This document shows, in pieces, positions 29,163-57,578 of a stretch of 64,000 nucleotides of DNA (the first letter of the stretch is position 1; each line of letters begins with the position of its first letter). A program made the translations under genes and the position numbers. The stretch spans positions 64,001-128,000 of IMG/VR virus record IMGVR_UViG_3300031760_000002; one strand, written 5' to 3'. A model generated the notes under the pieces. It ran no database searches. It saw nothing but the letters and a program-made list of their open reading frames with translations, and was not told the origin of the DNA. This DNA comes from a virus (taxonomy: Duplodnaviria; Caudoviricetes).

Positions 29163-29588
29163 CTACAGGGTGGCGAAACCCTGCTCCGCATTCATGGACC
29201 GTTTGTTCCAATTGACCCACTCCTTGTACTGCTGCCACAGGCTGGATCCGGCCATATCGTACTGCTGGTATTTCTCCTGGTCCTGTATCGTCAGGCCTCC
29301 GGCGCTGTACTGCAACGAGTCTCTGCGATACTTGTGGGCCGCCATAAACAAAAGGTTCGCGGCTGTTCCGGTGAGAAGCTGCGATCTGAATGGAAACTTG
29401 TCGTAGTCGTACGACCTTATATATGGCGGCTGGTCGTTCCAGAAATCTACGGTTAGGGTCATCGCCGTACGTATTTCTTCCGGCGAAAATTCGAAATCGT
29501 CCAAAAGCTTGTTGGCTTCTGGATCGTTGTCCCTAAGCCAAATCCTTACATCGAGATCCGTAAGGTATGTTTTGCTGCCCTCCGCCAT
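29163..29588 (-). CDS. Head-tail adaptor-like protein
   Basis: VRIWLRD..FEFSPEEI helical adaptor pattern and YSAGGLTI hairpin. Confidence 0.6.
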   Translation of the reverse strand: MAEGSKTYLTDLDVRIWLRDNDPEANKLLDDFEFSPEEIRTAMTLTVDFWNDQPPYIRSYDYDKFPFRSQLLTGTAANLLFMAAHKYRRDSLQYSAGGLTIQDQEKYQQYDMAGSSLWQQYKEWVNWNKRSMNAEQGFATL

Positions 29589-29998
29589 TATCTCATCGTA
29601 AGGCTCATTGCCTTCCCATTAGCAACCGAGTTTCCGAACATCCTGTTCCACGTGGCGTCGTCCTGGGCGGTTCTTACGGCCTTTACACGATCGTACTCCT
29701 TCGATCCGGGCCATACTACCTTCCTGCCAGGAAGCATCCATTCCAACGCTTCCCCTATCGGACCCTTGATCGGACCGGCTGGGTTGTCGTTCTTTTCCGC
29801 ATATCGGCCCCACCGTTCCCCAAGCTTGAGGGCAAGATACCCGCCGCCTAGAGCAAAAAGCCACGGTTTCAACTTCTGCCACAACGTTCTCTCGTCGTCG
29901 TACTCGGCCTGCTTACAAAAAGAAGCAACACCTTCAAGAAAGGCGTCAGGGTCCGATCTGAACGAGTCTCTGTAGGCGTCTATGGTCTTCGCGGTCAT
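29588..29998 (-). CDS. Small head-associated protein with KQA motif and hydrophobic segment
   Basis: FLEGVASFCKQAE followed by PWLFALGGGYLAL. Confidence 0.55.
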   Translation of the reverse strand: MTAKTIDAYRDSFRSDPDAFLEGVASFCKQAEYDDERTLWQKLKPWLFALGGGYLALKLGERWGRYAEKNDNPAGPIKGPIGEALEWMLPGRKVVWPGSKEYDRVKAVRTAQDDATWNRMFGNSVANGKAMSLTMR

Positions 29999-30024
29999 GT
30001 CTTTAACCAACCAGTCAAAAGGCT

Positions 30025-30068
30025 AAAAAATCCCCCCTCGCACCGCCGCGAAGACGATGCGAGGGGGA
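30025..30068 (-). terminator. Rho-independent terminator after the major capsid gene
   Basis: CCCCCTCGCA/TGCGAGGGGG stem followed by GATTTTTT on the - strand. Confidence 0.75.
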
Positions 30069-30076
30069 ACCGGTCG

Positions 30077-31051
30077 TTAGCCGTTCGAGTCTTCCTTGTC
30101 GACGTTGAACCTGGCGAGGGCCATGCCGGCGGTGTTGCCGAACGCGAAGCCACCCATCCAGTAGCTGAACATCGAGATGAAGAACGCCTCCTTCTTGACG
30201 TACATCGTCCAGTCGTCGAGATAGAAGCACTTGCCGAGGAAGTCGGGCTCCGCGAAGAAGTAGATCCAGTTCGTAGGAACCAGATGGTTCTTGATCGTGA
30301 AGAGCGTCTTGATGCCCATGATCGTGTCGGTGGTGAGGCCGTTCAGGAAGAAGTCCTGGGCCTTGTCGCCGCCGACCGCGAGGCGATCGAGCTTGAGCAG
30401 GTCGCGAGCCGTGATCTCGTTCATGAGCGCGCAGTAGTTGCGGGCGATGAACTTGCCCTCGGCGTTGCCGGACGGGAGCATCTTGGTAGCCTCCGCGAAG
30501 GTGTCGCGGTTGAGCGGATACTCGAAGTCGCGCCACTGGACCTTGCCCGAGATGTGGTTGGGCTGTCCCTCGCCGTCGGCGTCGAACACGATCGAGTTGA
30601 CCGTCTTCATGAACTTCGCGTCGATCTCGGCCAGACCGTCCTTGATGGAGTTGTCCGTGAGGATCTTGCGGATGTCCTGCTTGGTGGTGCGGAGCTCGGC
30701 GATGTCCTTGCGGAAATCGGGCGTGAGCACGCGGGCGAACGGGATGATGTACCTCGAGCTCTGGATGTACTCGCCATCCGGAACCGTCTGCAGCGGGACC
30801 CACTTCGCGGCGGGCGAATCGGGCTCGCGCTCCCACACGACCGCCAGGTCCTGGACGATGTCGTAGCGGAGCATGTCGTCCGTCGCCTTCTCGGGCGGGA
30901 GGATCTTGAACGCGAAGGAATCTTCGCGGATCTGCATCCGGGTGTAGTTGGTGGCCGCAGCCTGGGCCTTCTTCACGAAAGCCTGGTCGTCGCCGCTGTT
31001 GAGCGACTCGAGGATCTGGGCGTTGATGATGTTGACGTTCTGGGTCTCCAT
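30077..31051 (-). CDS. Major capsid protein (HK97-fold, predicted)
   Basis: Protease-scaffold-decoration-capsid gene order, AAAGGAGA RBS, extreme codon bias, downstream terminator, and IREDSFAFKILPP motif. Confidence 0.8.
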   Translation of the reverse strand: METQNVNIINAQILESLNSGDDQAFVKKAQAAATNYTRMQIREDSFAFKILPPEKATDDMLRYDIVQDLAVVWEREPDSPAAKWVPLQTVPDGEYIQSSRYIIPFARVLTPDFRKDIAELRTTKQDIRKILTDNSIKDGLAEIDAKFMKTVNSIVFDADGEGQPNHISGKVQWRDFEYPLNRDTFAEATKMLPSGNAEGKFIARNYCALMNEITARDLLKLDRLAVGGDKAQDFFLNGLTTDTIMGIKTLFTIKNHLVPTNWIYFFAEPDFLGKCFYLDDWTMYVKKEAFFISMFSYWMGGFAFGNTAGMALARFNVDKEDSNG

Positions 31052-31075
31052 GTTGAAGTCTCCTTTCATTCTAGG

Positions 31076-31681: not shown

Positions 31682-32068
31682 TTAGTCGATTATGCCGTTG
31701 TCGGCATTGTTTCCATAGCTGCCGAACTCACGTTCCCAGGGATCCTGGGATGTGGTGGAAGCCGTTACGTTTGACCTTCCTCCGACCGACGGCGGCTGGA
31801 TCGCCGCTGCCAGCTTTTCGACAAGGTCCCATGCCTTGGATGGGTCTTCTGCGACCTTCTCCACAAGCTTGTTAACATCGTTCTTCGAAACCAATCCATT
31901 CTCTGAAAGGGTCTGGATGGCCTCGGTTGCGCGCTTTACGAAGCCGGCCTTGGAAGCGGTAGCCTCCTTGGCCGACTTCTCAAGCTTCGCGAGTCTCTCA
32001 AGACGAGGCTGGACGACGCCGATATACTCGGCGACTTTCTCAGCGAGCGTATCGTAGTCCGTATCCAT
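31682..32068 (-). CDS. Small coiled-coil scaffold-like head protein
   Basis: Helical, with several K-x-A motifs (EKSA, KEA, KRA, KLA). Confidence 0.55.
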   Translation of the reverse strand: MDTDYDTLAEKVAEYIGVVQPRLERLAKLEKSAKEATASKAGFVKRATEAIQTLSENGLVSKNDVNKLVEKVAEDPSKAWDLVEKLAAAIQPPSVGGRSNVTASTTSQDPWEREFGSYGNNADNGIID

Positions 32069-32070
32069 CG

Positions 32071-33321
32071 TTACTTGAGTCTTCTGAGAGCTTCGATCAG
32101 CTTTCCAGCGGTCTCCCTGGCTGCGGCCTTCTTGACGGAAGCAGCCTTTTCAGCCGGGTCAGCCGTGGCTTCTTCGGCACCAGCTCCGGCATCGGCTCCG
32201 GCCACGTCACCGGCAAGGGCCTCGGACGCCTCCGGGGAGTCGGATTGTTCGGAAATCGCCTGGACTAGCGCCTGGGCGTCTTCCTCGGACAGTTCTCCGG
32301 ACTCGATCGCCTCGGTAATGGCCTCGGCAACGTCGTCCTCGGAAATGTCGTCAGGAGCGCCTTCGTCCTGGGCACCCTCGGACACGGCCTGCGTAATGGC
32401 AGCCGCGGTCTCCTGGTCAATCGTGCCTTCGGACGCGAGGTCCTGGACGGCTTCGACGATCTCGTCTGCAGAGAACTCGTCAAGGGCAGAAGCAGCCTCC
32501 TCCGGAGACAGCTCGCCACCGCCAACGTCGCCTCCCTCGCCTCCGGCAAGAGCGGCCTCGGCATCGGCAGCCCCCTGTGCTTCGGCTGCATCGCCAAGGG
32601 CCGCTTCGGCGTCTTGAGCGCCCTGGGCCTCCTGGAGATCGCCGATCATGGATTCGGCATCCTGCGCGCCCTTCTCGAACTCGTACTGCGCCTGCTCTTC
32701 GGCGGCCTGCTTCTCAAGAAGTTCGATGACCTCCTTCGCGAATTCCGCACCGGCCCTCTTCGTGAGGGCTTGCTGAACGGCGAACTGGCCTTCCTCGTCC
32801 GCAAGCGTAATCGCCGCGATCTTGGCCAGCATTCCCATGTCGACCGTGATCTTCTCCGGCTGTGCCGCAGGGGCCGCCTGCTTCTGTACCGCCTGCTTCT
32901 GCACCGGCTGCTTCTCCTCCTGTGCCTTGGCCGGAGCAGCAGCCTTCTTCTTGAGGATCATGTCAACAAGGCTGTTTCCGAGGCTGTCCAGGGCGGAGGC
33001 CTCCTTGGCATTGGCATCCGCCGTGTCAAGCGGCTTCTTGTCCGGAGTAAGGACGGACTCTTCGGCCGTGTACCCCTCGTCTACGACCGGTACGTCCGAT
33101 CCGGGTTCCGCGCCATTGAGATTCCTGTTCTTCATGTTGTCGATGGTGTCGTCCTTGAGCGCGTCCGTCGGAGTCTTGGCGCCGGACGGAATGTCCTTGT
33201 CGTGCTCTGCACCGGGGAGGGAATCCACGTCCTGCCCGGTGATGTTCTCGGATTCGCGCTCTCCGGCCTCCTTAACGTAAGCCTTCACTTCGTCCATCCA
33301 ATCTTTGATTGTGTCTGCCAT
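32071..33321 (-). CDS. Capsid scaffolding protein
   Basis: Very acidic, Ala-rich and low-complexity, located between protease and MCP. About 10 K-x-A motifs. Confidence 0.65.
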   Translation of the reverse strand: MADTIKDWMDEVKAYVKEAGERESENITGQDVDSLPGAEHDKDIPSGAKTPTDALKDDTIDNMKNRNLNGAEPGSDVPVVDEGYTAEESVLTPDKKPLDTADANAKEASALDSLGNSLVDMILKKKAAAPAKAQEEKQPVQKQAVQKQAAPAAQPEKITVDMGMLAKIAAITLADEEGQFAVQQALTKRAGAEFAKEVIELLEKQAAEEQAQYEFEKGAQDAESMIGDLQEAQGAQDAEAALGDAAEAQGAADAEAALAGGEGGDVGGGELSPEEAASALDEFSADEIVEAVQDLASEGTIDQETAAAITQAVSEGAQDEGAPDDISEDDVAEAITEAIESGELSEEDAQALVQAISEQSDSPEASEALAGDVAGADAGAGAEEATADPAEKAASVKKAAARETAGKLIEALRRLK

Positions 33322-33324: not shown

Positions 33325-34734
33325 TTATCTCTTTTGTAGGTTGTTTATGGAAGCCAAGGCCTCCAGTTCTAGTTTGTTGCCACGCCGGCTGTTCACAACT
33401 GCGTCTATCGCAGACAATTGGTAAGACAAATAGGCCTCCGCCAGTTTTGTCGTAACACCGTCATTTACGCATTTATCCGAAATTGTGTCAAGGTTGTACT
33501 TGATATCTGACGGGCATATAGTTGCCGAAATGATCCTTTCAGGTATCGAACCGCCCTCCTTGGACATCAGTTCCGAGCATCGCCTCGACACGTACGTCCT
33601 GTCAAGATCGTCGAACGCGTCGTAGGTCGTATCGTTGCAAAGCTTCGACACGGACGAAGACTTGACAAGAGAAGAAAGTACGGCAGGAACGGCCTTTTCT
33701 ACACGATCCATGTACGGTTTAACGACCTTTTCATAGTCGTCGCCGGTGGCATATTTGAAGAACGTAGGCACGTCCATAACTATTCCGGCCCGGGCCAAAT
33801 CCGACATCGCGTTCTTGATCGGCTCCTCCCTTAGCCTGGACACCAGTTCGTCGGAAAGGTGGTCCGCCGCGATTTTCCTGAACTCGTACAGGTATCCGTC
33901 CCTCGCTGTAACTACAGAAGCGGATTTTGTCAACCACCCTACGAACTCGTCCTGCATGCCGGCTATGTCCCTGGCATACCCCAGCTTCCTTGATGCAGAA
34001 TCGGATTCTACCGCGAAATCGTCAGGCGCCGTCACTCCCTCCAGCTCGGCGTACTTCACCGAATCCAAGTCCAGCGCCGAAGCCACCTTGAGATTCCATG
34101 CAATCCTGTCAGCCGGCCTTCCTACGAACGAAATGTCGAAGAACTTCGGCTGGTCGTTGAACGTTCCGACCTTGCGTCCGTCGTCCCAGAGCTCCCCGAG
34201 ATGGTTGGCCACATGGTCGCACTCCGACGAATCGCCGGCGGATTTACGCAGGGAACCGCAGATGGAGCATCTGTCGTTGGGAACCGTGCATGCCATGCTA
34301 AACGGTATTTCGCCCTCCTTTTCGAGCCTTTCAAGCTCTGGAGCGGCCTTCTCCTTGTCCGCGTGTATGAACAGTTCGACCCGCCCCATCGGCTCGTTGT
34401 ACGCCGCAGCCGCGATCTTCCCTATGCCCTGCGTCTTGGAGTCCTTGTTCCTGTGATGCCTATACACGCACCCGTCCATGAACGTTGGGTGGTACTCGAT
34501 GCACGCCTTCTTGCTGAACAGATCGCCGTTCCTGTTCATGCCGTAGTGCTCCGCGTCGCCGAGCGCCACGACATGTATTCCAACGGACTTGTCGTCCGGC
34601 TTGAGCTCCTCGTACTCTTTTCCGAAAATGGTGGAAGCCTGCTTGTGCAGCTCCCCCTCCCTCGTTATTATCTCGGCACCGACTCCTATCGTCGGATCCC
34701 AAGACGACGAATGTATCAACTTAACCATGCTCAT
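33325..34734 (-). CDS. Prohead maturation protease (HK97/assemblin-like fold) with Zn-finger insert
   Basis: NRNGDLF, VYRHH (candidate catalytic His), FSMAC (candidate catalytic Ser), CSICG..CDH and FFDISFVGRPAD. Confidence 0.8.
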   Translation of the reverse strand: MSMVKLIHSSSWDPTIGVGAEIITREGELHKQASTIFGKEYEELKPDDKSVGIHVVALGDAEHYGMNRNGDLFSKKACIEYHPTFMDGCVYRHHRNKDSKTQGIGKIAAAAYNEPMGRVELFIHADKEKAAPELERLEKEGEIPFSMACTVPNDRCSICGSLRKSAGDSSECDHVANHLGELWDDGRKVGTFNDQPKFFDISFVGRPADRIAWNLKVASALDLDSVKYAELEGVTAPDDFAVESDSASRKLGYARDIAGMQDEFVGWLTKSASVVTARDGYLYEFRKIAADHLSDELVSRLREEPIKNAMSDLARAGIVMDVPTFFKYATGDDYEKVVKPYMDRVEKAVPAVLSSLVKSSSVSKLCNDTTYDAFDDLDRTYVSRRCSELMSKEGGSIPERIISATICPSDIKYNLDTISDKCVNDGVTTKLAEAYLSYQLSAIDAVVNSRRGNKLELEALASINNLQKR

Positions 34735-34735: not shown

Positions 34736-35545
34736 CTAGTCAGCCCCGTTCAAAGCAGCCGAGCCAAGTCCGCTACCAAGGGAAATCGCGGCCAGCAACG
34801 CGATCTTCCTGGCATTTCTCCCCTTCCGTATCGCATCCATGTACTTCCTCGGATTTCCTCCGGTAATACCTGTGCCACCGGCCGGCCGAAGGCCTCTTAT
34901 ATACCTTCTAAATGCACGGTCCTTTCCGATCTGGGCACGCCTGGCTTTTTTACTGAACAGCATCTTTATGTCGTTCAAAATGCCAGATTTTGCCTTATCC
35001 CACTGTGCCGCCGTCTCCCTGATCCTGTCGACATCCGCCTGGCTCATGTTCCTGGTAGGATGGAGATCCCGCAGATAATTGGAGTCCTCCAATTTAAATA
35101 CGTTTGGAACGCTAGACCTTATTGCGGCATCCCTGTTCTCAAGCACCTTTTTCTGTATCTGGTAATACAGGCTTCTGCCGGCGGCCGTCCCGGTTCCTGC
35201 GGCAGTAAGCCCGGCAGCGGTGCTCCATCCGAACTCCGGTACGTTCCGCTGGAAAAACCCGGGCTTGTCTACGAGCATGCCGAGGCGCCTGCCAAGCCTG
35301 CTCATGCCGAATCCGCCGACGCCGCCAAGGGCAGCACCGGTAAGAATGTTGGTCAGCAGCCTCGACTTCTTGTCCTCGTCTTCGTCCTCTGGCGTCAATT
35401 TGTCAGCGACGTACCCCGCTCCGCCGCCAAGGACGGTTCCGGCTATAGCCATTGCAAGATCCGATTTGGCATCGGATTTCTTGCACAGGGCCGGAGCCGC
35501 GAATTTATACAGGCTCATAGCCTGGTCTGAAACGCTAGAACTCAT
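34736..35545 (-). CDS. Internal head protein with Gly-zipper hydrophobic segments
   Basis: YKFA motif, then GTVLGGGAGY, GAALGGVGG and a C-terminal hydrophobic helix. Confidence 0.55.
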   Translation of the reverse strand: MSSSVSDQAMSLYKFAAPALCKKSDAKSDLAMAIAGTVLGGGAGYVADKLTPEDEDEDKKSRLLTNILTGAALGGVGGFGMSRLGRRLGMLVDKPGFFQRNVPEFGWSTAAGLTAAGTGTAAGRSLYYQIQKKVLENRDAAIRSSVPNVFKLEDSNYLRDLHPTRNMSQADVDRIRETAAQWDKAKSGILNDIKMLFSKKARRAQIGKDRAFRRYIRGLRPAGGTGITGGNPRKYMDAIRKGRNARKIALLAAISLGSGLGSAALNGAD

Positions 35546-36050
35546 AGACTTCTTCCTTCACAAGGTTTGAATTTATCTTCCTAAGCCTGTCGACGGCCTT
35601 GGCGATACGTTTCACAATCTCGTCTGCCCAAGACCTGGCACACAGGGCAGGGTCGTCGAAATCTTCCTCCCCGAATTCGACAAGTATCGGCATGTCGCTC
35701 CTGATCTTTTTCTCCTGTTCCGGAAGCTCGAAGCAGCAATCGTCATCATTGCTTTCATCGCAGCCGCAGTCTCCGCTCTGCGACGTAAGCTCTACGATAC
35801 CTGGATCCGTACCGTACCCGCTGTCCAGATCGTCCCGTACGATCATGCCAAGTTCCCTGTCCAGCCTGCCTTTTCTCCTGCCGTGCCGTTTGATGCACTT
35901 CGTGCAATGCTTGAGAAACTTTCCTCCGATCTGGATCGTAGGCTCCCCAAACCTGACGATCAGGTCGAGCTCGTGCCTGCTCCAGTCGTCGGTGGATATC
36001 ACGACGCTGAGAACGGAATTTATCCTGTTCTGGTTTACCCTTACCTTCAT
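35535..36050 (-). CDS. Hypothetical protein with Cys/acidic insert
   Basis: Start refined to MKVRV by ATGA overlap. Contains CGCDESNDDDCC. Confidence 0.6.
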   Translation of the reverse strand: MKVRVNQNRINSVLSVVISTDDWSRHELDLIVRFGEPTIQIGGKFLKHCTKCIKRHGRRKGRLDRELGMIVRDDLDSGYGTDPGIVELTSQSGDCGCDESNDDDCCFELPEQEKKIRSDMPILVEFGEEDFDDPALCARSWADEIVKRIAKAVDRLRKINSNLVKEEVYEF

Positions 36051-37438
36051 GCCCTGGCCCCGATTTTTCCCTGGTTCTTGAGAAGCACGTTGTCGAGGTC
36101 GGCCCACTGTTTGGCGTCAAACGGCGACACCGCTACGGAATTGACGGACTGCCTAAGCACCGCCCTCACTATCTCCTTGTTCAAGGACGCCTGAGGAGCC
36201 ACGTCGACGAGATTCTGGTACGCCGACGTTACGGCTTCCGGATCGGCTTCGGACAAAACAGGGTCATTGGCGTACAGATCGCTTATGATGCTGCTCCTGA
36301 TCACGTTGTCGACGTAATTCTTGATCTTGGAGTCCTTCTTGTCGGACCCGCCGATGGCCTTGTCTATCTTCTCGGATGAAATTCCTCCGCCCTGTAGATA
36401 GTTCCATATCTCCTTGACTCCGGCAGGCGCTTCAGGGATTCCGGCCTTCAAACCTGCTTTTGTGGCCTTCCACGTACCTGAAACTCCTTTTCCAAGCCAT
36501 GGATCGTCCTTGTCCTTTTTGGAGTCCTTGTCGTCATCTCCGCCGCCATTCGGCTGCGGAGGTGGCGGAAAAGGGGGATTCGGAGCGGCTGCCTCCTTCT
36601 CAACCCTGTGGTAGTCCGCTATAAGCCTTTTCGCCTCGGATTCCCTGGACGCGACCAATTCTACCAACGAATGAAGCTCGGCGACCTTCTTCAGGTCCGA
36701 TTCGATCTGCTTGGCCATTTCGACTTCAACCCTGACGCCGGAATCGTCGAACACGTTGGACCTGTTGATCGCCTTGAGGTGCGGGCCGGCGGACTTTATC
36801 AGGTCTGGCCTTAGGACCTTGTCTATCTCCCTTACGGCCGACGGAAACTTCTTGGCGGCCGCGGCCTTGAAGATGGCGTACCTGGCCTCCGGTTCGTAGC
36901 CGGACGACAGCATGCGGGCAACCTTGTCAAGCCTGCTGGCTATGAGGGACTGTGACATGGCCTCGCGTTCCTCCGCGAAACGTCTGCGCCCTTCCAGTTC
37001 AGAAGCATACTTTACAACCCTGTCGACGACTTGTTTCCTCGTGAACCCGTCCGTGGCCTTGGGCCTCTTCTCCTCGGACGCCGCCTTCTCCATGTGGGCG
37101 GCCTTGCGGTAATCGGACTCGTCGAACCCGTACGCCGAGTAGTCGTACTCGGTATCGCCGAAGGACGCCTTCTTTTCGGTCCTGTCCTCGAAAAGCATGC
37201 GATGCACCTCGTTCTTGTCGGCTATGTCGCAATTGGACGTCCTGTCCTCCGCGTTCTTCTCGTAGTGGGCTATCACCCTGGCGGTGTTCATCGTCTCTAC
37301 AAGCCTGTCGGTCTGGTCGACATTGAGATTGAAGTCCGCCGCAGCCTTGACGATGGACGAATTTATATCCATGCCAGAGTTGTAGTAGTCAACCGTCTTA
37401 GGAAGGATCTCGTCCCTCAGCTGTTCCTTGAATGACAT
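36047..37438 (-). CDS. Head protein with many K-x-A motifs
   Basis: VKAA, EKNA, EKKAS, EKAAS, VKYAS, IKSAG and EKEAA. Confidence 0.6.
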   Translation of the reverse strand: MSFKEQLRDEILPKTVDYYNSGMDINSSIVKAAADFNLNVDQTDRLVETMNTARVIAHYEKNAEDRTSNCDIADKNEVHRMLFEDRTEKKASFGDTEYDYSAYGFDESDYRKAAHMEKAASEEKRPKATDGFTRKQVVDRVVKYASELEGRRRFAEEREAMSQSLIASRLDKVARMLSSGYEPEARYAIFKAAAAKKFPSAVREIDKVLRPDLIKSAGPHLKAINRSNVFDDSGVRVEVEMAKQIESDLKKVAELHSLVELVASRESEAKRLIADYHRVEKEAAAPNPPFPPPPQPNGGGDDDKDSKKDKDDPWLGKGVSGTWKATKAGLKAGIPEAPAGVKEIWNYLQGGGISSEKIDKAIGGSDKKDSKIKNYVDNVIRSSIISDLYANDPVLSEADPEAVTSAYQNLVDVAPQASLNKEIVRAVLRQSVNSVAVSPFDAKQWADLDNVLLKNQGKIGARA

Positions 37439-42062: not shown

Positions 42063-42380
42063 TTAAGCCTTGCCAACGGTTACGACCTGTCCCATCGGGT
42101 CGAGCCCCGCGTAGTCCCTGACCTTGTTGCTGAGATGGGCCGCTCCGAGGCCAGCTAGGGACCCGATACCGACCCCTGCGAGTGCTCCGGCTCCGCCCTT
42201 TGCGGTGCCACCGGCAACTCCACCGGCGTATGCGCCAAGAAGGGCGCCAAGGATCAGCTTGAGCTTCCTTCTCCTTGCGACGTAGTCTATGTCGGCCGAC
42301 TCCTGGGCCAGTTTAAGCATGCGCTTGCATTCGGCTATGCGAACCGCATGCGCGATCTTGGTAAGATTTTCCTGTTTCAT
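42063..42380 (-). CDS. Small Gly-zipper internal head protein
   Basis: TKIA and LKLA, then LGALLGAYAGGVAGG..GAGALAGVGIGSLAGLGAA. Confidence 0.6.
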   Translation of the reverse strand: MKQENLTKIAHAVRIAECKRMLKLAQESADIDYVARRRKLKLILGALLGAYAGGVAGGTAKGGAGALAGVGIGSLAGLGAAHLSNKVRDYAGLDPMGQVVTVGKA

Positions 42381-50800: not shown

Positions 50801-52209
50801 CGCTTCACCCTCTGCGGTATGCCGTCCTTCATCGCAATGACGTACGGCTTTGTCATGTCCTGCCCCGGAAAGGCCACAAGCCCGTCCGACGCAGTCGCTA
50901 TGTCGACGTATGTAAGCTTCCCGGTTCTGTTGTCTATGAACTCGCCGTACAGCTTGTTGTCCTTGCCAAGGAACGTGTTGTAAGCGGCACGGACGTCTAC
51001 ACCCACTTTTTCCGACTCGGGACCCGAGTTCATGTCGACGAACCCCAAGTAGTCCCCCTGGACGTCGCGCGCCTCCATCGTGACCGCCTCCGGAGACCCT
51101 ATGCCTCCCAGTCCGAACTTGGATATCCTGGACATCTGCTCCAACGTGGAAAGCGGGTTCGCCTCCTCGCCGGGCATGGCGAGCCCAGATCCGTTTATGA
51201 TCGTATCGACCCACGGGTTAAGGGCGTTCCTCTGGATGGATTTAAGATTTCCGTTCCTCCTGGCCTTGTACAGAAGCGTATTGGCCAGGCGTCCGGCGTT
51301 CTTCTCGATGCGTTCCTTGAAATAGTCCTCGACGCCGTAGAACTTGGAAAACCTGGGGCTGTCCCTGTTGTCGGCCTTCTCATCGCCCCTGGAGACGTTC
51401 AGAAGCTTCTGCGAGGCCCTGAGGAGGAGCTCCGGCGTAACATGGTCGACGCCACGGAGGCCCATGGTCCTCTCGACGACCTCCGGATCCACCTCGTATC
51501 CGGCGATGGCGTCGCGAACGAACTGGATCTTGTCATCCTGCGTGGCGGCCGGATTCGACTTGTACCCGGCCATCCTGGAATAAAGCTTGTTCCACGCCTG
51601 AGGGTCCGCCTTTGCGGAGTTTGCCGCGGCAACGTCCGCGCCCCAGTATTTGACAATGCTCTTGTCGTCTACCCCAAGCCCGCGCAAAACCTGGTACAGC
51701 GGTATCTGCCCCTGTCCGGTCTGCAGCGACATGACGCCGGTCTCCGGGTTCAGCCCGAAATGGAACGCGTGCCCTGTGCCCGGCCTGATGTTGAACTGCG
51801 CCTCGTATTCGCCGTTGGACTTCCGCCTTGCATAGACGCCAGGACGAAGCCTTGACTGCGAAATGACCGTGTACTCGGACCCGTTGTTTATAATCGTTCC
51901 GCGGTCGGTCCAGTACGGAACCTGCATGACGGAATCCTTGCGCTGGTCCAGCACCTTCCCGGTCTTCTTGTCGGTGAGCCTCCAGGTGCCGACCAGGTTT
52001 GTCCTTAGATTCCTGTTCCTCAGGATGGCGTCCTTCTGCTGCTTCAGCGTGAACTCCTGCGGACCGTCGTATGCGATGTCCACAAGCTCCAGCCTGTAGT
52101 TGTCGTCCTCGACTGGAAAACGCTTCTGCATCGCGGAAAGAACATTGTCGTAAATGTTCCTTCTGGCCGATTTTGCATCGTCGAACGCCCTGAGACCGTC
52201 TGGAATCAT
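47839..52209 (-). CDS. rpoBC: RNA polymerase beta subunit fused to the beta' N-terminal half (catalytic DFDGD)
   Basis: Beta motifs SQSRLRPGVY, NPLS..RIS, ARDVQ, GQNL, SYEDA, VGDKLS..GLKGVV and NPMGFLSR. Then beta' motifs GGLFD, PVIPPMFRP, SRGVI, DRAPTWH and FTADFDGDQM. Confidence 0.93.
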   Translation of the reverse strand: MIPDGLRAFDDAKSARRNIYDNVLSAMQKRFPVEDDNYRLELVDIAYDGPQEFTLKQQKDAILRNRNLRTNLVGTWRLTDKKTGKVLDQRKDSVMQVPYWTDRGTIINNGSEYTVISQSRLRPGVYARRKSNGEYEAQFNIRPGTGHAFHFGLNPETGVMSLQTGQGQIPLYQVLRGLGVDDKSIVKYWGADVAAANSAKADPQAWNKLYSRMAGYKSNPAATQDDKIQFVRDAIAGYEVDPEVVERTMGLRGVDHVTPELLLRASQKLLNVSRGDEKADNRDSPRFSKFYGVEDYFKERIEKNAGRLANTLLYKARRNGNLKSIQRNALNPWVDTIINGSGLAMPGEEANPLSTLEQMSRISKFGLGGIGSPEAVTMEARDVQGDYLGFVDMNSGPESEKVGVDVRAAYNTFLGKDNKLYGEFIDNRTGKLTYVDIATASDGLVAFPGQDMTKPYVIAMKDGIPQRVKRSEVRYTVPSYGHMITSNTNMNIMPTGVQSTRQFYGSKFWSQYLPQKNGEVPLVDSLMPDGKTTWSEYYGRKIGTLKSDVSGVVTKVDDDTVTIKGDDGKTVKVELTKNVPFNRLSAISYFPSVKEGQSVKPGDMIAHSNYTDAKTGALNMGQNLRAAILPWNGMSYEDAWTISEDAAKKLATDRLYSFDHEARNGVQLGRNRYISAFPSKFTKDQIATLDENGIVKPGTVLHRGDPIVLSLGPKVLTSSDKALGKLSKALRNSYTDRSETWEHDYEGTVVDAVKTSSGAKVNVHAQPPVRVGDKLSPFSGLKGVVGTIIPMDKMPRDAVTNEPYDVLVNPMGFLSRTAPNQLMEISLGKVAKATGKQIRIPQLPPPEGWYRWTKAQMDKAGVKESADVFDPVSGKTIKNVGDGWIYMHAFHHLSEKKASARGADGAYTQDEQPAKGGFEGAKKSSGMDLWGMLAHNVPEVIKDTQIIRGTRNDDYWRALQLGLPTPEPDVPFIYNKFLNTLRAGGINVTEKGSITRIMPQTDKDVEKMAGGRVISSSDMVDSDFEPVKGGLFDLGKTGGMAGNQWSMIELPEPVPNPIMEEPVRRVLGLTTSRMEDILSGREKLDGKTGGQALKDALSKIDVDKRIEEASRGITTFRGQKRDDAVKVYRYLTAMKNQGLHPKDWMISKVPVIPPMFRPVSKMGDVALTSDMNKLYKDIIENANHFRELRKDLSDDGVSDERLNIYESVKAAYGLGQPITPENAAKGVKGAIRQVIGSRPKFGMYQNKVISKAVGGVSRGVITPDPNLDMDQCGIPEDMAWPMYKPYIMRELSRNGYPASVSTKMIADRDATARSILVKEMEKRPVILDRAPTWHKFNFTAFRPFLTDGSTIKVCPLITQSFTADFDGDQMNAHVPSSEKAVRQAYEKMLPSKNLTSLTDLRSPRHTPSKEQVFGLYALTRPMTEKPVRVYNTVSEAKAAYARGEIGPNDPIEILRK

Positions 52210-52937
52210 TACATGTTCCTCTGGTAGGATCCCGTCTGGTAGTTCCAGCCATACCTAGGCATGGCCTCCATATACTGTCTTTTCTCGGCGTAGCTTCCTG
52301 GCGCGGCCTTTGCATCCGGGTTGAACTGCTGCTGCTGTCTATAATCGTACAGCTGGCCTCGGAGATAATTGCCGCGTTCGGCCGGAGAAAGCCTGTCCCA
52401 GTCGCTCCTGCCCATGTACGCCTCGAGATTGTTGAAATTGGCATCGTTGTACGCTGCCCGCATTCCCGCCCTGGTAAGGACCGTCTTGCCGACCGGAAGT
52501 CCCGTTGCGGCTTGAAGACCGAACCTGCCGGCCCCGTATACCGCCCTTCCGAACCGTGTCGCGTTCAATGCATTTTTGGCGGCGATCGCATTTTTTCCGA
52601 CCCTGGTCGCCGCCAACGCGCCCTTGGTTCCGGCCAGCGCACTCCTTATCGCCGTTCCGCCTATTCCGAAAGACAGCAGATCGGCTATGCCGCTTCCTAT
52701 GCCAAGGCCAAGATTGCCGAGGCCGGACCATATATGCCCGTTTGCAAGAGACTTTATGCCATCGCCTATAGACAACGCAGAACCGAGTATCGGGGTTGCG
52801 TACATTGCGGTCTGGCCGAGTGCGCCTCCAAGACTCTTTGCTGCCGGAAGAACGGTATCGGCCTCCTTTCGGAGACCGGCCGTCTTCACGATGTAAGAGT
52901 CTATCTTTCTTTCAAGCGCGCATGTATTCACCGTCAA
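52209..52937 (-). CDS. Internal head protein with pre-toxin-TG-like hydrophobic hairpin
   Basis: VKTAG/RKEA leader and PILGSALSIGDGIKSLANGHIWSGLGNLGLGIG. Confidence 0.55.
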   Translation of the reverse strand: MTVNTCALERKIDSYIVKTAGLRKEADTVLPAAKSLGGALGQTAMYATPILGSALSIGDGIKSLANGHIWSGLGNLGLGIGSGIADLLSFGIGGTAIRSALAGTKGALAATRVGKNAIAAKNALNATRFGRAVYGAGRFGLQAATGLPVGKTVLTRAGMRAAYNDANFNNLEAYMGRSDWDRLSPAERGNYLRGQLYDYRQQQQFNPDAKAAPGSYAEKRQYMEAMPRYGWNYQTGSYQRNM

Positions 52938-53848
52938 CCCCCGTTTTCAGAAAGATACTCGTTAAGGGCCTGCCGCATAAGATCCCCCCTCTGCTGCGGC
53001 GTCATGGAATTCCAGTCGCCATGGCCTTGCGCCGACTTCGCGTCATTGGTGATCTTTTCGAAGTTGTTCGGATCGACCTTTTCCGGAATTATATACGGCG
53101 ATGCAATGGACGCGGCCATATCGGCAGCTATAAGCTTTCCGCTGTTCCTGGCGGCCCAGCCTATCGGCCCTCCCATGGTCCTCGCACGTTCAAACGGACG
53201 TACGACGCCGTTGAACACGCCGCCCGGGAAATGGCGGAGGAACGGCGTGAACAACGCCGCCCTGCCGAAGTTTACGGCGGCACTTCCGTAATTTCCCTCT
53301 CGAATGTTGTCTATGCCCTCCCCGACATCGCCGGCTATGAACACCGGATCGGCCATGGCCAGGGCCTTGGTACCATACCTCTTCAGCATGGACGCGGATG
53401 CAAGCGATCTGTTTCCGAACGCCTGCTGAACGTCCCTCAACGTCGAAAGGTTCCTCTCTGCTACGGCGCGATCAGCTCCAGAAAGGCCGCGTGCCCTGCG
53501 CTCTCCGGCCTCTATGGCCTTTTCGACCATGTCCTGGCGACTCCTGTTGAGGTACGCCGTTTCACCGCCCTTAAGTTCCTTCCTAAGGCCCTTCAGCTCT
53601 GAAAACCGGCCTTGATCCATCCTTGGGCCGGCGGACGCGAACTCGTGCTCAAGCTCCGCAAGCCTCCTGGATTTCATGGCAGCGTCGGCCCTGCTGGCCC
53701 TGAACTGGGACGCGAGCTCGGGACTTTCCCTCAGGGCCGCGCGTATCTTCGACGCATTGGCACTGGACCTCGACAGCCTTCCAGACCTCGAGAAGATCTT
53801 CAATATCCTTGAGCCAAGGGACGAAAATGGCAATGCTTCCTTATACAT
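52934..53848 (-). CDS. Internal head protein with pre-toxin-TG-like segment
   Basis: MYKEA leader and PVFIAGDVGEGIDNIREGNYGSAAVNFG. Confidence 0.55.
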   Translation of the reverse strand: MYKEALPFSSLGSRILKIFSRSGRLSRSSANASKIRAALRESPELASQFRASRADAAMKSRRLAELEHEFASAGPRMDQGRFSELKGLRKELKGGETAYLNRSRQDMVEKAIEAGERRARGLSGADRAVAERNLSTLRDVQQAFGNRSLASASMLKRYGTKALAMADPVFIAGDVGEGIDNIREGNYGSAAVNFGRAALFTPFLRHFPGGVFNGVVRPFERARTMGGPIGWAARNSGKLIAADMAASIASPYIIPEKVDPNNFEKITNDAKSAQGHGDWNSMTPQQRGDLMRQALNEYLSENGG

Positions 53849-55562
53849 TTGCGGCCTCTAACGCCTTTGCCAGGCGATCCCTGTACTCTTCCGGTATGAC
53901 GCCGTCCAGATCTTCGTCGAATTCCACAACAACCTTTTTGTCTTCCTGCGGCTTGCCCTTTCTCCTTGGCATATCTTCCTTGATCCGGTTTATGGCGTCT
54001 ATGACTTCCTTGTTGGAATTGTCCTTCACCGTTTTCAGCCTGGAGGACAGGGCCAGCAGGTCGTTCAACGACGCCGTCTTCTGTACGCCGGAACCGGGAA
54101 ACGCGGACCCGTCAAGCCTGGTCCAGCCGCCTTTGGAAAAATCGTATCTTGACAGCATGTCGTTTATCGCCTCCGGGCTTACGCCAAGTTCGCTAAGCAT
54201 GCTGCCAGCTACCCTTTTCCTTCCGGATGCCGTGTTATTGGCGTACCACCCGACGATTCGCTTGACTAGAGGTCCTATCAACGGAATGGACGCAAGGGTG
54301 GAAAGAAACCCGCTGCCGTTGTGCAGGCCGGCTATCCGCTCGTCCGCCTTCATCCTGACGAGATCCCTGTTGCGCTCCTGCCCAAGAAGCTCGAACCATT
54401 CCTCCGGATTGTTGCGCGCGAGCTGCATGACATGCGACTTTACAGCGTCCTGGTACATCTCGGGGTTCTTCTGGTACGCGTGCAGGGACGGCCCGTACTT
54501 GAACAGGGTCGACATGGGCATCGAAAAATCGCTGTCGTCCCTCTTCAGGCCCTGTGTCTTCGCATATTGGTCCAGGATGTACTGCTTTCCGCCCTTCGCG
54601 TTCGCGATATCGTTCAGGAACCCGTAGTCTATGTCGCTACCGGCCATCTTGCTCATCGGAAGCGAGTCCGCTATGCAGTCGCGAAGTATTCCGACCGTGG
54701 CCAGCATCTGCTCCGGCTCGATTTCGCGTTCGAACGACCCGGACTTGAACAGGATCCTCGTCTTCTGCTCCGGCTCCTCCTCCTTCTTGGAGAAACGCTC
54801 CTCCAGCAGCTTCTTGACGATGTAGGCCGCGCCGCCCGTGGCCAGTATGTACGAGGCAAGGGCCGCACCGCCTATGTTCCTCGTCGTCCTTGAAATACCG
54901 CCAGGAAGGGACACTATGTCCGTGATTACGCCAGCGGACTTCTCGAACTCCTCCACCGAATCGTCCCCGAACATGAAAAGATCGGAAAACGCCTCCGCCG
55001 CCTTCAGCCTTCCGCCGCTGAGAAGCTGCACGTATTCGCGCTGCGCCGCGTCGACCTGCTTCTTCAGCCTCTTCTGCTCGAGTTTTTCGGCTATTTTCGA
55101 TACGACGACGTACCCGGCGACACCGCCTCCGATGGCGGACAGTATGTTGCCCGCCTGGTCCATCGGGCCCGACAGGAACGCCCTTTTCTCGGAGCCCATC
55201 GTGGAGTCAAGGCTCGTGTACTGGCCGTTCGTCTTCCTGGGCTGCCCGAACACCGGCCAGATCTCGCCGTCGACGGAGGATTCAACCTTGCATACCTTGT
55301 CGTGGCTGTCGCAGGATTCCTGGCAGGATCCGTCCTCGGCCGTCTTCCTGTTCTTGCCGATCGTGAGAACGATCGTATTCGGACCGATCTTGTCCGATAC
55401 GCGCTCCTCCTCCTTCTTCTTCTGCCTCCTGGCTTCCGCAACCTGCCTTATCAGCGCAACCAGGGCAGCCGCACCGGCGCCTACCGCAAACGCGTCGGCA
55501 CCATGGTACAGCATGCTCCCCATGTTCTGGCCCTCTTTACGCATTGTCGCCATCCTTTCCAT
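53841..55562 (-). CDS. Polyprotein-like head protein with three K-x-A/G-preceded hydrophobic modules
   Basis: RKEG, EKRA and EKSAG are each followed by a Gly-rich TM-like helix and a charged helix. Also FKSG, SKMAG and QKTAS. The start may be 55553 or 55544. Confidence 0.6.
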   Translation of the reverse strand: MERMATMRKEGQNMGSMLYHGADAFAVGAGAAALVALIRQVAEARRQKKKEEERVSDKIGPNTIVLTIGKNRKTAEDGSCQESCDSHDKVCKVESSVDGEIWPVFGQPRKTNGQYTSLDSTMGSEKRAFLSGPMDQAGNILSAIGGGVAGYVVVSKIAEKLEQKRLKKQVDAAQREYVQLLSGGRLKAAEAFSDLFMFGDDSVEEFEKSAGVITDIVSLPGGISRTTRNIGGAALASYILATGGAAYIVKKLLEERFSKKEEEPEQKTRILFKSGSFEREIEPEQMLATVGILRDCIADSLPMSKMAGSDIDYGFLNDIANAKGGKQYILDQYAKTQGLKRDDSDFSMPMSTLFKYGPSLHAYQKNPEMYQDAVKSHVMQLARNNPEEWFELLGQERNRDLVRMKADERIAGLHNGSGFLSTLASIPLIGPLVKRIVGWYANNTASGRKRVAGSMLSELGVSPEAINDMLSRYDFSKGGWTRLDGSAFPGSGVQKTASLNDLLALSSRLKTVKDNSNKEVIDAINRIKEDMPRRKGKPQEDKKVVVEFDEDLDGVIPEEYRDRLAKALEAANV

Positions 55563-55917
55563 ACGAATTAGGCACCTTGGTGGTCGTCGACTTCTCGTTC
55601 TTCCTGAAATAGAACCACTCCATGTACCTCTTCCATGTATCGCCCATTACCTGAAGGTCGTTCCTGCATATGACACACTGCGACGCCTGCACCTTCTTGA
55701 AAAGCTCCTGCATCAGCTTCATGTACTCGAGCCTGTCAGACGACGAGGACATGTCGAATATGGCCACCTTGTAGTCCGTGACCTCGATGGGATACTTGTC
55801 GTACTTGGCCATTTCGACGCCGCGTTCTATCTCGTTCATCGGCGGAAACATGCCCGCAACGCCGCCGGACGACATATCGTACCACGGCGGCATGGCGTTC
55901 TGGATCGGATTCGTCAT
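55537..55917 (-). CDS. Hypothetical protein
   Basis: ATGA-coupled, co-oriented ORF. Confidence 0.6.
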   Translation of the reverse strand: MTNPIQNAMPPWYDMSSGGVAGMFPPMNEIERGVEMAKYDKYPIEVTDYKVAIFDMSSSSDRLEYMKLMQELFKKVQASQCVICRNDLQVMGDTWKRYMEWFYFRKNEKSTTTKVPNSYGKDGDNA

Positions 55918-56231
55918 CTTACTACCCCCATGGCCCTTGAACTCTCGGCGGCAACGTCGTTGAAATGGTCAAGCTGCGCCTTCAGCTTCCTGGTCTTCTC
56001 CGAATCCTCCTTCAACGACGAGCTCAACGCGTACCATACGGCGCCTATCGGAGCCCCTATGAAAACGGCCGTACGAAGCGCCGTTCCCAAAAGGGACAGC
56101 GGGCCGGAATCGGCGGCCTCCTTCTGGAAAGTCGTCGGCGTAAGCCCCTCGGCGGCCAGCTTCTTGATGCCTCCGAGCCTCATTGCCTCCAGCCGTTCGC
56201 TTGGAGTAAGGAATTCGTTGATTCTGTACAT
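55914..56231 (-). CDS. Small head protein with leader-like segment and TM helix
   Basis: Start refined to MYRINEF (TGATG overlap). LGGIKKLAAEGLTP..QKEAA followed by a hydrophobic helix. Confidence 0.6.
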   Translation of the reverse strand: MYRINEFLTPSERLEAMRLGGIKKLAAEGLTPTTFQKEAADSGPLSLLGTALRTAVFIGAPIGAVWYALSSSLKEDSEKTRKLKAQLDHFNDVAAESSRAMGVVR

Positions 56232-56596
56232 CAGTAACCTCTCAGTATCAGTCCGGGACCGACCTTCCTGTTGTACGGGTTCGGGTATCGGTCGTTGTAC
56301 ATCTTGTTCCCGTACATGGCGCCTCCGACGGTTGCAACGCCCCTCCAGAACGGATTCGCCCCCAGGTATTTGGCGGCCTGGTTGCCTATAATGCCGCCTC
56401 CAAGGACATAGGGTATCCTGGACGCCGGGGACTTTACGTCCAGGCCGGCGTTGTTTATCCTGTCGAACGCGGATCTCCGTATGTTCGGATTGGCGTTCAA
56501 GTTGGCGTTCCAACTATGCATGAAGTCCCCAACCGTCTGAACCGGTTGGAGACCCGCGATCTTCAGCAAGCCTGTAAAATCTCGTTTTCCTGTCAT
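56231..56596 (-). CDS. Small Gly-zipper head protein
   Basis: Start refined to MTGKRDF (TAATG overlap). LKIAG, LGGGIIG and GVATVGGAMYG. Confidence 0.6.
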   Translation of the reverse strand: MTGKRDFTGLLKIAGLQPVQTVGDFMHSWNANLNANPNIRRSAFDRINNAGLDVKSPASRIPYVLGGGIIGNQAAKYLGANPFWRGVATVGGAMYGNKMYNDRYPNPYNRKVGPGLILRGY

Positions 56597-57069
56597 TAGT
56601 CGGTCTTTTTCAAAACTTCCCTGTCCTTGAGGTCCACGGCTATCCCAAGCCAGTGCTGCAGACCTACGTTGTCTACAAGATACCACTGTTTGGCCGGCGA
56701 AGTCAATTCGGGCACGACTACGGTCTCGCCCGGAGAAACCAGGTTTATCCGGTCCCCGACGACGAACACGGTTGACTCCGTCCTTCCTCGTCCAATGGAC
56801 ATGCACCCGGACGGAGCAAACGCCGCGGAAGCCGCAAGGACGGCGCATATGATGGACCGTCCCTTGGACGAAAGCTCCTTCTCAAGCCTGTCAAGCTGCT
56901 TTTTCAATATGGCCACGTCGGTTACCCTCCCTTCCTCCAATGCCAGAACCAACCTCTTCTTTGTGTCCTCTATCTGGGACATGATGCGGTCGACCCGGTC
57001 CCTCCTCCTGGTGAATATGCCGGATACGAACCTGAGCAGCTCGGTTAGAAATCCTATCAAAGACGACAT
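56596..57069 (-). CDS. Membrane protein with internal lipobox (spanin-like candidate)
   Basis: N-terminal hydrophobic helix, coiled coil, then KGRSIICAVLAASAAFAPSG|C. GGAGG RBS. Confidence 0.45.
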   Translation of the reverse strand: MSSLIGFLTELLRFVSGIFTRRRDRVDRIMSQIEDTKKRLVLALEEGRVTDVAILKKQLDRLEKELSSKGRSIICAVLAASAAFAPSGCMSIGRGRTESTVFVVGDRINLVSPGETVVVPELTSPAKQWYLVDNVGLQHWLGIAVDLKDREVLKKTD

Positions 57070-57083
57070 CGAACACCTCCACA

Positions 57084-57578
57084 CTAAATCCCGTACGAAG
57101 ACGCGCCGTACGATCCGGTCATTCCCCTGAAGAAGCTCGCAAGGTCTTCGACGCCGGACCCGGACTGGTCCTTCGATTCCGACGGAAGCACGTCGGGGTA
57201 TTCAACGCGCAGGCCATTGATCAGCTCCACCCGCTGGCTCAGCATCTCCTTTACCTTGGATACGGGGACTGACCCCTTGGATGCCAGGAACCCGGCGGCC
57301 TCCGCCATGGACTGGAACTCCGACTCCGAGCCGTCGGTATCGTACACGACGACCTTGGTGCCCGACGCAAGCTTGTCCAGCCCGTCCATCATGCGGCGGA
57401 AATCGAACGAAGCCTTCTTCATGTCGGAATGCTTCGTCCTGGCGAAATGCTCCGCATCCTCGTCCGATATATGCTCGGCGACCTGCCGTATCTTCTTCGG
57501 GGCGTGCTTGAGCTTTCCGCGCTTGTACGCGGTTACCATTCCGAAAAGGCGCTGCTGCGATGGTGACTTGGCCGGCAT
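57084..57578 (-). CDS. DUF3008-like N-domain plus NUMOD1-like DNA-binding domain
   Basis: MPAKSPSQQRLFG..HFARTKH, then KVVVYDTDG..EFQSMAEAAGFL. GAGG RBS. Confidence 0.55.
   Translation of the reverse strand: MPAKSPSQQRLFGMVTAYKRGKLKHAPKKIRQVAEHISDEDAEHFARTKHSDMKKASFDFRRMMDGLDKLASGTKVVVYDTDGSESEFQSMAEAAGFLASKGSVPVSKVKEMLSQRVELINGLRVEYPDVLPSESKDQSGSGVEDLASFFRGMTGSYGASSYGI

Follow-up and report, generated by a model that had tools for sequence, protein, structure and literature searches.

Lys-x-Ala as the probable cleavage code of a gp21-fold prohead protease in the head gene block of a large tailed phage

The head genes of a large tailed phage (Caudoviricetes; IMG/VR record IMGVR_UViG_3300031760_000002) encode proteins enriched for the motif Lys-x-Ala (K-x-A), and we consider it likely that K-x-A is the cleavage code of the phage's own prohead protease, a gp21-fold serine protease, with Lys as P3 and Ala as P1. 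The DNA analyzed here (the window) comprises 64,000 nucleotides, bases 64001 to 128000 of one 176,839-bp phage genome with ~57% G+C. Its minus strand carries nearly all of the genes, including every feature listed below with window coordinates. The head block spans positions 29588 to 57578, and the protease is encoded at 33325-34734. The proposed code very probably has a hydrophobic residue at P5 or P4, Lys at P3, and Ala at P1, with a small or acidic residue (S/A/G/E/Q) next after the Ala. In the sequences below, an arrow marks a known or predicted cut.

RESULTS

K-x-A is enriched in head proteins and placed near their N termini

Motif counts were compared with within-protein shuffles, with the head block defined as 27 called proteins (9,230 amino acids [aa]); genes were called by a codon-usage score trained on long open reading frames (ORFs). 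K-x-A occurred 103 times in the head block, versus 69.8 expected (z 4.4), a count reached by 0 of 200 shuffles, and ranked first in a blind scan of a-x-b triplets. Outside the head block, K-x-A showed no excess (tail, 38 versus 34.9 expected; rest of the genome, 165 versus 162.1). The reverse triplet, A-x-K, numbered 63 in the head block versus 69.9 expected (tail, 36 versus 35.4; rest, 183 versus 162.7), so Lys/Ala composition alone does not account for the K-x-A excess. K-x-G was at expectation in all three sets (head, 59 versus 59.9; tail, 36 versus 36.3; rest, 165 versus 158.6), and R-x-A counts were 66 versus 58.2 in the head, 46 versus 33.4 in the tail, and 168 versus 157.5 in the rest of the genome.

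The residues around the sites extended the motif. P5 was Leu or Phe in 34 of 102 sites, versus 11 expected; P4 was often Glu, and P1' was Ser or Glu, with Ala and Gly also common (K-x-A-S, z 4.9 in the head block). With Phi as a hydrophobic residue two positions upstream of Lys (P5), Phi-x-K-x-A, an extended motif defined on the window itself, was found 62 times in the head block versus 20.1 expected (z 10), compared to 15 versus 10.8 in the tail and 58 versus 48.7 in the rest of the genome. Known codes were not enriched in the head block ([SAG]xE, z −1.3; AxE, z 0.0; [VLI]xA, z −1.9; [VLI]-x-A-S likewise), and [LI]xE was weakly above expectation (z 2.1).

K-x-A was present within the first 40 residues of 18 of the 27 called head proteins (7.0 ± 2.2 expected), compared to 1 of 23 tail proteins. 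In the 23 head proteins other than the four richest (scaffold, protease, 463-aa, and 128-aa proteins), sites per 100 aa numbered 2.07 over residues 1 to 40 and 0.61 elsewhere. When two extra small genes described below were counted, 20 head-block proteins carried K-x-A within 40 residues of their start. The original prediction, made from the letters and their ORFs, held that nearly every head protein carries K-x-A or K-x-G, that the motif is sparser in the tail, and that a protease with Lys(P3)-x-Ala/Gly(P1) specificity matures roughly 20 proteins. The head-tail difference was borne out by the enrichment comparison, and a number near 20 is plausible given the N-terminal placement, although "nearly every" was too strong. 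The Ala half of the code was supported by its head specificity, its N-terminal or linker placement, and its conservation, as well as by the lack of enrichment of the known Glu codes; the Gly half was not supported, since K-x-G was at expectation here and in five relatives. The K-x-A core was correctly described, and the motif proved longer than was described (Leu/Phe at P5, Glu at P4, Ser/Glu at P1').

The motif recurs in relatives and its sites are conserved

A megablast search of the head block against phage records gave no nucleotide match. By protein similarity, the closest named relatives were Salmonella phage Arash (180.8 kb) and Vibrio phages D69, D148, and D181 (187 kb), whose capsid proteins are 27% and protease domains 40% identical to those encoded in the window. 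Closer relatives are encoded on many uncultured contigs of 140 to 206 kb. The protease domain also matched Bacillus phage G gp19 and the capsid maturation protease of Gordonia phage Stormageddon.

Because the extended motif was defined on the window, independent genomes provide the fair test of it. K-x-A was in excess in the head blocks of Arash (68 versus 41.8; rank 3 among a-x-b triplets) and D69 (72 versus 41.5; rank 1), as well as in those of three metagenomic relatives, L005 (59 versus 32.8), L006 (62 versus 33.2), and L007 (63 versus 29.9), where it ranked first each time. The proteases of L005 to L007 are 45 to 50% identical to the window protease. Phi-x-K-x-A had z scores of 5.7 to 9.7 in these five genomes, and K-x-G was not enriched in any of them. 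Genes past the capsid gene showed no K-x-A excess in D69, L005, or L007 and a modest one in L006 (20 versus 12.1), which comes from one 902-aa protein (L006:16820-19528) with 16 K-x-A. The post-capsid proteins of 915 aa in L005 and 688 aa in L007, unlike this L006 protein, have two and three K-x-A, respectively.

As a positive control, the same scan was applied to T4 gp20 to gp24. I-x-E ranked first and L-x-E third ([LI]xE, 55 versus 29; z 5.5), in agreement with the gp21 code established by experiment, and Phi-x-K-x-A was not enriched (7 versus 5.2). In phage G gp14 to gp27, K-x-A ranked first (27 versus 15.8; z 2.8). The top triplet in the high-GC phage Stormageddon (L010, gp9 to gp15) was not K-x-A but R-x-A (45 versus 26.0; z 3.7), an observation made after the fact that hints at a general basic-x-Ala code.

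To assess site conservation, the proteins were aligned, three sequences at a time, with their orthologues on two related contigs (45 to 86% identity). Of 58 K-x-A pairs, 38 (66%) were kept in both orthologues, compared to 38% for K-x-G, 27% for R-x-A, 25% for E-x-A, 22% for A-x-K, and 7% for K-x-S; single Lys and Ala residues were ~44% conserved in the same alignments. The alignments thus suggest that K-x-A sites are under purifying selection.

The protease has a gp21 fold, and K-x-A sites flank its catalytic domain

The 469-aa product of 33325-34734 consists of a gp21-fold catalytic domain, a low-confidence linker, and a helical C-terminal half. The AlphaFold2 model (mean predicted local distance difference test [pLDDT] score of 79) has an N-terminal beta-rich domain and a linker at residues 205 to 235 with pLDDT below 50. 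Residues 1 to 206 of the model matched T4 gp21 (5jbl) with Z 12.1 and a root mean square deviation of 3.1 over 148 aligned residues, and 5jbl was also the top Foldseek match (probability 0.99). Other fold matches were to the proteases of varicella-zoster virus (VZV; Z 6.7) and human cytomegalovirus (HCMV; Z 5.0), over ~110 residues, and the next unrelated rows had Z of ~5. H93, H94, and S146 (in FSMAC), like the NRN67 and D200..W213 motifs, were invariant in 24 homologues, and the order and spacing of NRN67, H93/H94, S146, and D200..W213 parallel T4 NRN51, H85, S140, and D168..W178.

Sequence searches were less informative. No Pfam family matched the protease at an E value of ≤0.01, the T4-type protease model included; a search of the Protein Data Bank with the protease profile returned nothing relevant; and PHROGs gave a weak "head maturation protease" match (E 6.4e-4). 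An hhalign comparison of the protease profile with T4 gp21 (probability 0.4) aligned only residues 15 to 85 and was used only to anchor the NRN motif. The family is large, with 2,669 representatives at 50% identity (E ≤ 0.001).

Hint/LAGLIDADG inteins lie at FSMA↓C (here the arrow marks the insertion point), adjoining the putative catalytic Ser, or near NRN in P0241, P0245, and ~45 other homologues, so that about one-third of the listed relatives are 830 to 900 aa long. Inteins typically insert at such sites in essential enzymes. The fold, the conserved His and Ser residues, and the intein sites all support the modeled assignment of the 33325-34734 product as a gp21-fold serine prohead protease with predicted activity. 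This agrees with the original prediction, including its choice of FSMAC as the site of the catalytic Ser, exactly where homologues carry inteins.

The protease itself contains 12 K-x-A (3.0 expected; z 5.9), among them HKQA↓S (P1 = 33), LKVA↓S (P1 = 218), and VKYA↓E (P1 = 229). Two of these bracket a predicted mature catalytic domain of residues 34 to 218 (34081-34635), with K-x-A sites on both sides, as HKQAS and LKVAS had been reported at the outset. This arrangement is a family property. Among 49 diverse representatives, those in which both anchor motifs could be located, K-x-A was found upstream of the NRN motif in all 49 and ≤20 residues after the ..AW motif in 46. On the N-terminal side, K31 is invariant in the family, inside a near-universal ..K-Q-A↓S-T-I-F.. 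motif. On the C-terminal side, N-L-K-V-A↓S comes after the last conserved motif of the catalytic domain and sits in the sole long low-confidence linker, close to the position at which T4 gp21 has I-T-E a few residues past the equivalent Trp. Three homologues carry an acidic insert behind ..AW; in these, K-x-A↓S comes after the insert and immediately adjoins a conserved S-x-x-L-P segment downstream.

A further feature of the catalytic domain lies at residues 154 to 174, after the strand that bears the catalytic Ser and before the last strands, where invariant Cys156-x2-Cys159 ... Cys172-x-His174 form a possible zinc knuckle. The loop between the Cys pairs is mostly a conserved R-K-x-A-G-D, and T4 gp21 has no Cys there.

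Capsid, scaffold, and other multisite proteins

The 330-aa major capsid protein (30077-31069), homologous to the annotated Arash gp226 major capsid protein, has VKKA at residues 32 to 35, near the N terminus as originally noted, in the site FVKKA↓QA. None of its 120 best homologues lacks K-x-A within residues 1 to 60, and P1 mostly falls at 27 to 30; Arash (LVKEA↓GA) and D69 (LTKEA↓GA) have P1 at 29.

Between the protease and capsid genes lies a scaffolding protein candidate of 416 aa and 21% Ala (32071-33321), with 13 K-x-A (P1 = 19, 108, 127, 128, 144, 149, 169, 190, 206, 219, 394, 399, and 400) and 11 K-x-A-[SAG] versus 2.0 expected (z 6.1). The proteins at the same position in Arash (gp223, 8 K-x-A) and D69 (10 K-x-A) are equally rich. 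A K-x-A-rich head protein of 128 aa (31682-32068) has six sites versus 1.4 expected (z 4.3), as do its same-position counterparts in L005 to L007 (six sites each). A 463-aa head protein (36047-37438), a weak homologue of Arash gp220 (10 sites in 307 aa), has 11 K-x-A, all in residues 1 to 283, and none in its C-terminal 180 residues (K-x-A-[SAG], 7 versus 1.3; z 5.1). An 828-aa head protein (39556-42042), a homologue of Arash gp218, has nine K-x-A, of which the first is WLQKKA↓Q (P1 = 25), and is site free at residues 289 to 604.

Copy numbers of about 10 each in the scaffold candidate and the 463- and 828-aa proteins had been estimated by eye and were roughly right. The suggestion that several of these proteins are polyproteins was not supported: each multisite protein keeps a single site-free stretch of ~175 to 315 residues, and the multisite stretches resemble scaffolds or long propeptides that would be broken into small fragments.

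N-terminal leaders of small head proteins and RNA polymerase

Seven otherwise unrelated proteins share an N-terminal leader of ~30 residues, M-T-x-Y-E-x-G-F-x-x-K-C-A-E-x-G ... K-x-A, with two K-x-A (P1 at ~13 and ~30). The sequence after residue ~30 is unrelated, and several bodies are Gly/Ala/Lys rich. By analogy, this leader probably targets cargo into the capsid. Three of the proteins are in the window: one of 264 aa (38382-39176), whose ..GF..KCAE.G.. leader ends in K-I-A (P1 = 30); one of 134 aa (42937-43341; TKIA↓E, P1 = 30); and a Lys/Ala/Gly-rich one of 160 aa (45348-45830; QKRA↓G, P1 = 30). The other four are just past the window end (genome G000:C1, 129808-130119, 130121-130588, 131428-131769, and 132407-133114). 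When the leaders were aligned backward from the cut site, their N-terminal parts fell out of register; the boundary is thus described qualitatively.

Further sites occur near the starts of the 105-aa protein at 42063-42380 (LTKIA↓H, P1 = 10), the 178-aa protein at 42380-42916 (LKKQA↓Q, P1 = 18; the leaders of these two small proteins also include LKLA↓Q, P1 = 25), the 269-aa protein at 34736-35545 (LYKFA↓A, P1 = 16), and the 140-aa protein downstream of the capsid gene at 29588-30010 (FCKQA↓E, P1 = 35). The 304-aa protein at 52934-53848 has MYKEA↓L (P1 = 5), and the 242-aa protein at 52209-52937 has IVKTA↓G (P1 = 20); RKEA↓D (P1 = 26) is a further N-terminal site in this pair (52209-53848). 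The leader strings first quoted for this block were all present: TKIA and KKQA in the 105- and 178-aa proteins, VKTAG and MYKEA in the 242- and 304-aa proteins, and MRKEG in the 573-aa protein at 53841-55562. LKIAG was present as well, with the assignment corrected from a long ORF to a 121-aa gene at 56231-56596 (LLKIA↓G, P1 = 14). This gene and its 105-aa neighbor at 55914-56231 (IKKLA↓A, P1 = 26) are the two extra small genes counted above. They are hidden in longer spurious ORFs of which only the 3' halves look coding, and they were missed by longest-ORF calling; each start abuts the preceding stop, and both products begin with K-x-A leaders.

Two RNA polymerase subunits are encoded in the block. 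The large subunit of 1456 aa (47839-52209), identified by PHROG RNA polymerase matches and 31% identical to Arash gp206, carries AKSA↓R at P1 = 15, and the second subunit of 619 aa (45980-47839) has no N-terminal K-x-A. In Arash (MPKSA↓S) and D69 (MPKKA↓S), the polymerase subunit site is at the extreme N terminus. Arash gp206 is the most abundant protein of the Arash virion proteome (PMC10585845); because of this abundance, the window RNA polymerase is probably packaged in the virion too.

DISCUSSION

A model for head maturation

We infer that the K-x-A sites are cut, that the 33325-34734 protease cuts them, and that the cut falls after Ala. By analogy with T4, phiKZ-like phages, and herpesviruses, the protease would be built into the prohead core and would cut at Phi-x-K-x-A↓(S/A/G/E/Q) after shell assembly. 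The catalytic domain (approximately residues 34 to 218) would first be freed by cuts at HKQA↓S and at LKVA↓S or VKYA↓E in the flexible linker. The scaffold, the 128-aa protein, and residues 1 to 283 of the 463-aa protein would then be chopped into pieces able to leave the shell, the capsid protein would lose ~35 residues (1 to 35) at FVKKA↓QA, and leaders of 5 to 36 residues would be trimmed from ~20 head proteins, including the large RNA polymerase subunit. The trimmed leaders would include the shared 30-residue leader that probably brings cargo into the capsid.

Several points weigh against this model. When the four richest proteins (scaffold, protease, 463-aa, and 128-aa proteins) were left out, bare K-x-A in the remaining 23 head proteins numbered 61 versus 54.4 expected (z 1.0). 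T4 head proteins, with their Glu code, also show a mild excess of bare K-x-A (25 versus 16.6; z 2.3), and some of the signal may therefore be common to helical head proteins at large. Conserved K-x-A occurs inside folded parts (protease residues 77, 108, 131, and 166; capsid protein residue 295), where it is probably not cut, and the motif alone is therefore insufficient as a cleavage signal. The structure prediction of the capsid protein (mean pLDDT of 50) was too poor to show an exposed K-K-A35. The cut register is drawn from analogy and from the boundary of leader similarity. Finally, the Arash proteome paper (PMC10585845) gives coverage at the protein level, with a supplement without peptides. 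Since coverage is ~100% even for replication enzymes, that proteome cannot test processing. A multi-omics paper on phage G used trypsin specificity and did not discuss processing. Routine virion proteomics would miss K-x-A ends because the P3 Lys is itself cut by trypsin and the usual searches accept only fully tryptic peptides.

Alternative readings of the motif

Cleavage could occur near the motif but at another bond, for example, after Lys, as with Lys↓Ser in HK97, or by another enzyme, whether a protease of the host or another one encoded by the phage. The register is not fixed by the data here, and no position of the motif is more invariant than Lys. However, the Ala two residues past Lys is as invariant as Lys, the P1' residues are small, and the similarity of the leader-bearing paralogues stops right after Ala, which together are why we place the cut there; that K-x-G and K-x-S are neither enriched nor conserved also argues that an Ala pocket matters. 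As for the enzyme, the motif co-occurs with the protease family in phages of Salmonella, Vibrio, Bacillus, and Gordonia (there as R-x-A), which argues against a host protease, and no second protease was seen in the head block. We therefore regard a different bond or enzyme as unlikely.

A role in docking or capsid targeting is, in our judgment, quite improbable. Here the motif would be bound, but not cut, by the scaffold core, the portal, or the helical C-terminal half of the protease. The N-terminal placement and the shared leader fit targeting as well as they fit cleavage. Docking does not, however, explain the 9 to 13 copies spread along scaffold-like proteins, the sites that bracket the catalytic domain of the protease in 46 to 49 of 49 relatives, or a site at residues 3 to 5 of the Arash and D69 RNA polymerase subunits. 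Also against docking alone, targeting and cleavage coincide in one leader in T4.

It is very unlikely that K-x-A has no dedicated function and arises as a side effect of the amphipathic or coiled-coil helices of scaffold-like proteins rich in Lys, Ala, and Glu. In favor of this reading, four helical proteins carry much of the excess, T4 head proteins have the mild excess given above, and the "other" proteins of the genome show a small excess of Phi-x-K-x-A-[SAGE] (29 versus 13.5, partly in leader-bearing genes outside the window). Against it, A-x-K occurs in the same proteins about as often as expected, T4 shows no enrichment of Phi-x-K-x-A, and this extended motif is still 32 versus 16.0 in the 23 other head proteins. 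Sites also stand in nonhelical contexts (the Arash and D69 polymerase N termini and the disordered protease linker), individual sites are conserved in orthologues, and insert-bearing protease homologues keep K-x-A↓S right before the next conserved segment.

Comparison with known maturation proteases

Cleavage at K-x-A by the window protease would set it apart from the characterized gp21-type proteases (T4, phiKZ, 201phi2-1, and SPN3US), which all cut after Glu (PMC5694885). Outside subscription journals, no paper was found that describes cleavage after Ala, or at K-x-A, by a prohead protease of a phage. The window protease resembles T4 gp21, of the MEROPS S77 kind, in its fold, in the order of its NRN, His, Ser, and D..G..A.D..W motifs, and in the location of its gene in a head module beside scaffold and capsid genes. 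The systems are also alike in having a three-residue code with P3 and P1 determinants, multisite scaffold proteins, short N-terminal cargo leaders, and a site just past the conserved Trp that ends the catalytic domain (I-T-E in T4, K-V-A here). The short leader shared by unrelated proteins here, which ends at a K-x-A site, is built like the capsid-targeting sequence of T4. The differences are that P1, as judged from motif enrichment, would be Ala rather than Glu and P3 Lys rather than Leu/Ile and that the 469-aa window protease has a helical C-terminal half of ~250 residues and a Cys-x2-Cys...Cys-x-His insert in its catalytic domain, with no Pfam match.

Large phages with phiKZ gp175, its 201phi2-1 counterpart, or SPN3US gp245 package a multisubunit RNA polymerase in the virion, have N-terminal propeptides on many head proteins, and carry extra motif copies in long propeptides (PMC5694885, PMC10052503), and SPN3US gp245 cleaves itself C-terminally (PMC5694885), all of which is paralleled by what is predicted for the window phage. 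Their codes differ from the one proposed here: S/A/G-x-Glu and A-x-Glu are at or below expectation in the window head block, where the conserved pair is Lys...Ala.

Ala at P1 is found in herpesvirus assemblin (MEROPS S21); pseudorabies virus (PrV) pUL26 has the R-site YLQA↓T and the M-site VQA↓S (PMC4498786). The assemblin fold is distantly related to that of the window protease, the match (VZV and HCMV, above) being far weaker than that to gp21. Both have a protease domain, then a self-cleavage site (here predicted), and then a scaffold-like C-terminal part, and both have Ala at P1 and Ser/Thr at P1' (again predicted here). Unlike assemblin, the window protease would have Lys at P3, not a Val/Leu/Gln-type residue, and many predicted substrates rather than two sites. 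The HK97 prohead protease gp4, of the same superfamily, has a C-terminal part for encapsidation and a basic residue in its recognition site, as proposed for the window protease, and reportedly cuts the capsid protein after Lys103. In HK97, a long delta domain fused to the capsid protein is removed, and there is no separate scaffold and there are no cargo leaders.

If the K-x-A code is correct, Lys(P3)-x-Ala(P1) would be a new specificity class among proteases of the gp21 kind, otherwise known only to cut after Glu. Such a code would recall the way assemblin, the herpesvirus homologue, cuts at Ala↓Ser. Many "hypothetical" head genes of large uncultured phages would become predictable substrates, with mature ends, scaffolds, and leader-bearing cargo. 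It is possible, and we put this forward only tentatively, that basic-x-Ala (K-x-A, or R-x-A in high-GC actinophages) is the cleavage and loading code of a very large branch of gp21-fold proteases, comprising 2,669 cluster representatives and including Arash-like phages, phage G, and Stormageddon. On that tentative reading, P1 Ala and P1' Ser would tie phage proteases functionally to assemblin, and the code plus the leaders would make the packaged and ejected cargo proteome of thousands of large uncultured phages predictable from sequence alone. Arash, D69, phage G, and Stormageddon are cultured relatives. A leader plus site could possibly be used to load foreign proteins into capsids.

Gene order and additional head-block proteins

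Along the minus strand from 57.6 to 29.6 kb, the head block runs from small proteins through the two RNA polymerase subunits and a run of unknown head proteins to the protease, the scaffold candidate, and the capsid protein. The order of protease, scaffold candidate, 128-aa protein, 194-aa protein, and capsid protein is the same in Arash, D69, and L002 to L007, and tail sheath and baseplate genes come after the capsid gene. A Pfam search of 20 head proteins gave nothing useful, and PHROG searches of head-block proteins gave only the weak protease and RNA polymerase matches.

A portal homologue of 908 aa is encoded at genome positions 135174-137900 (E 2e-82 to Arash gp204), ~7 kb past the window end, which means that the head module reaches beyond the window. 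The 573-aa protein at 53841-55562 was first guessed from its position to be the portal and was ruled out by its lack of similarity to the Arash portal; it has a hydrophobic N-terminal segment. Unlike its neighbors, a Gly/Ala-rich protein of 662 aa in the head block (43338-45326) is depleted of K-x-[AG] (4 versus 11.0 expected; z −2.6).

Outside the window, ~11 kb ahead of its start, lies the gene for a 425-aa protein (genome positions 52248-53525) in which the leader core recurs internally as ..K-C-A-E-Y-G.. and Phi-x-K-x-A-[SAGE] occurs six times; the adjoining 64-aa protein (51342-51536) has three sites. These two proteins may be head cargo encoded at a distance from the head genes.

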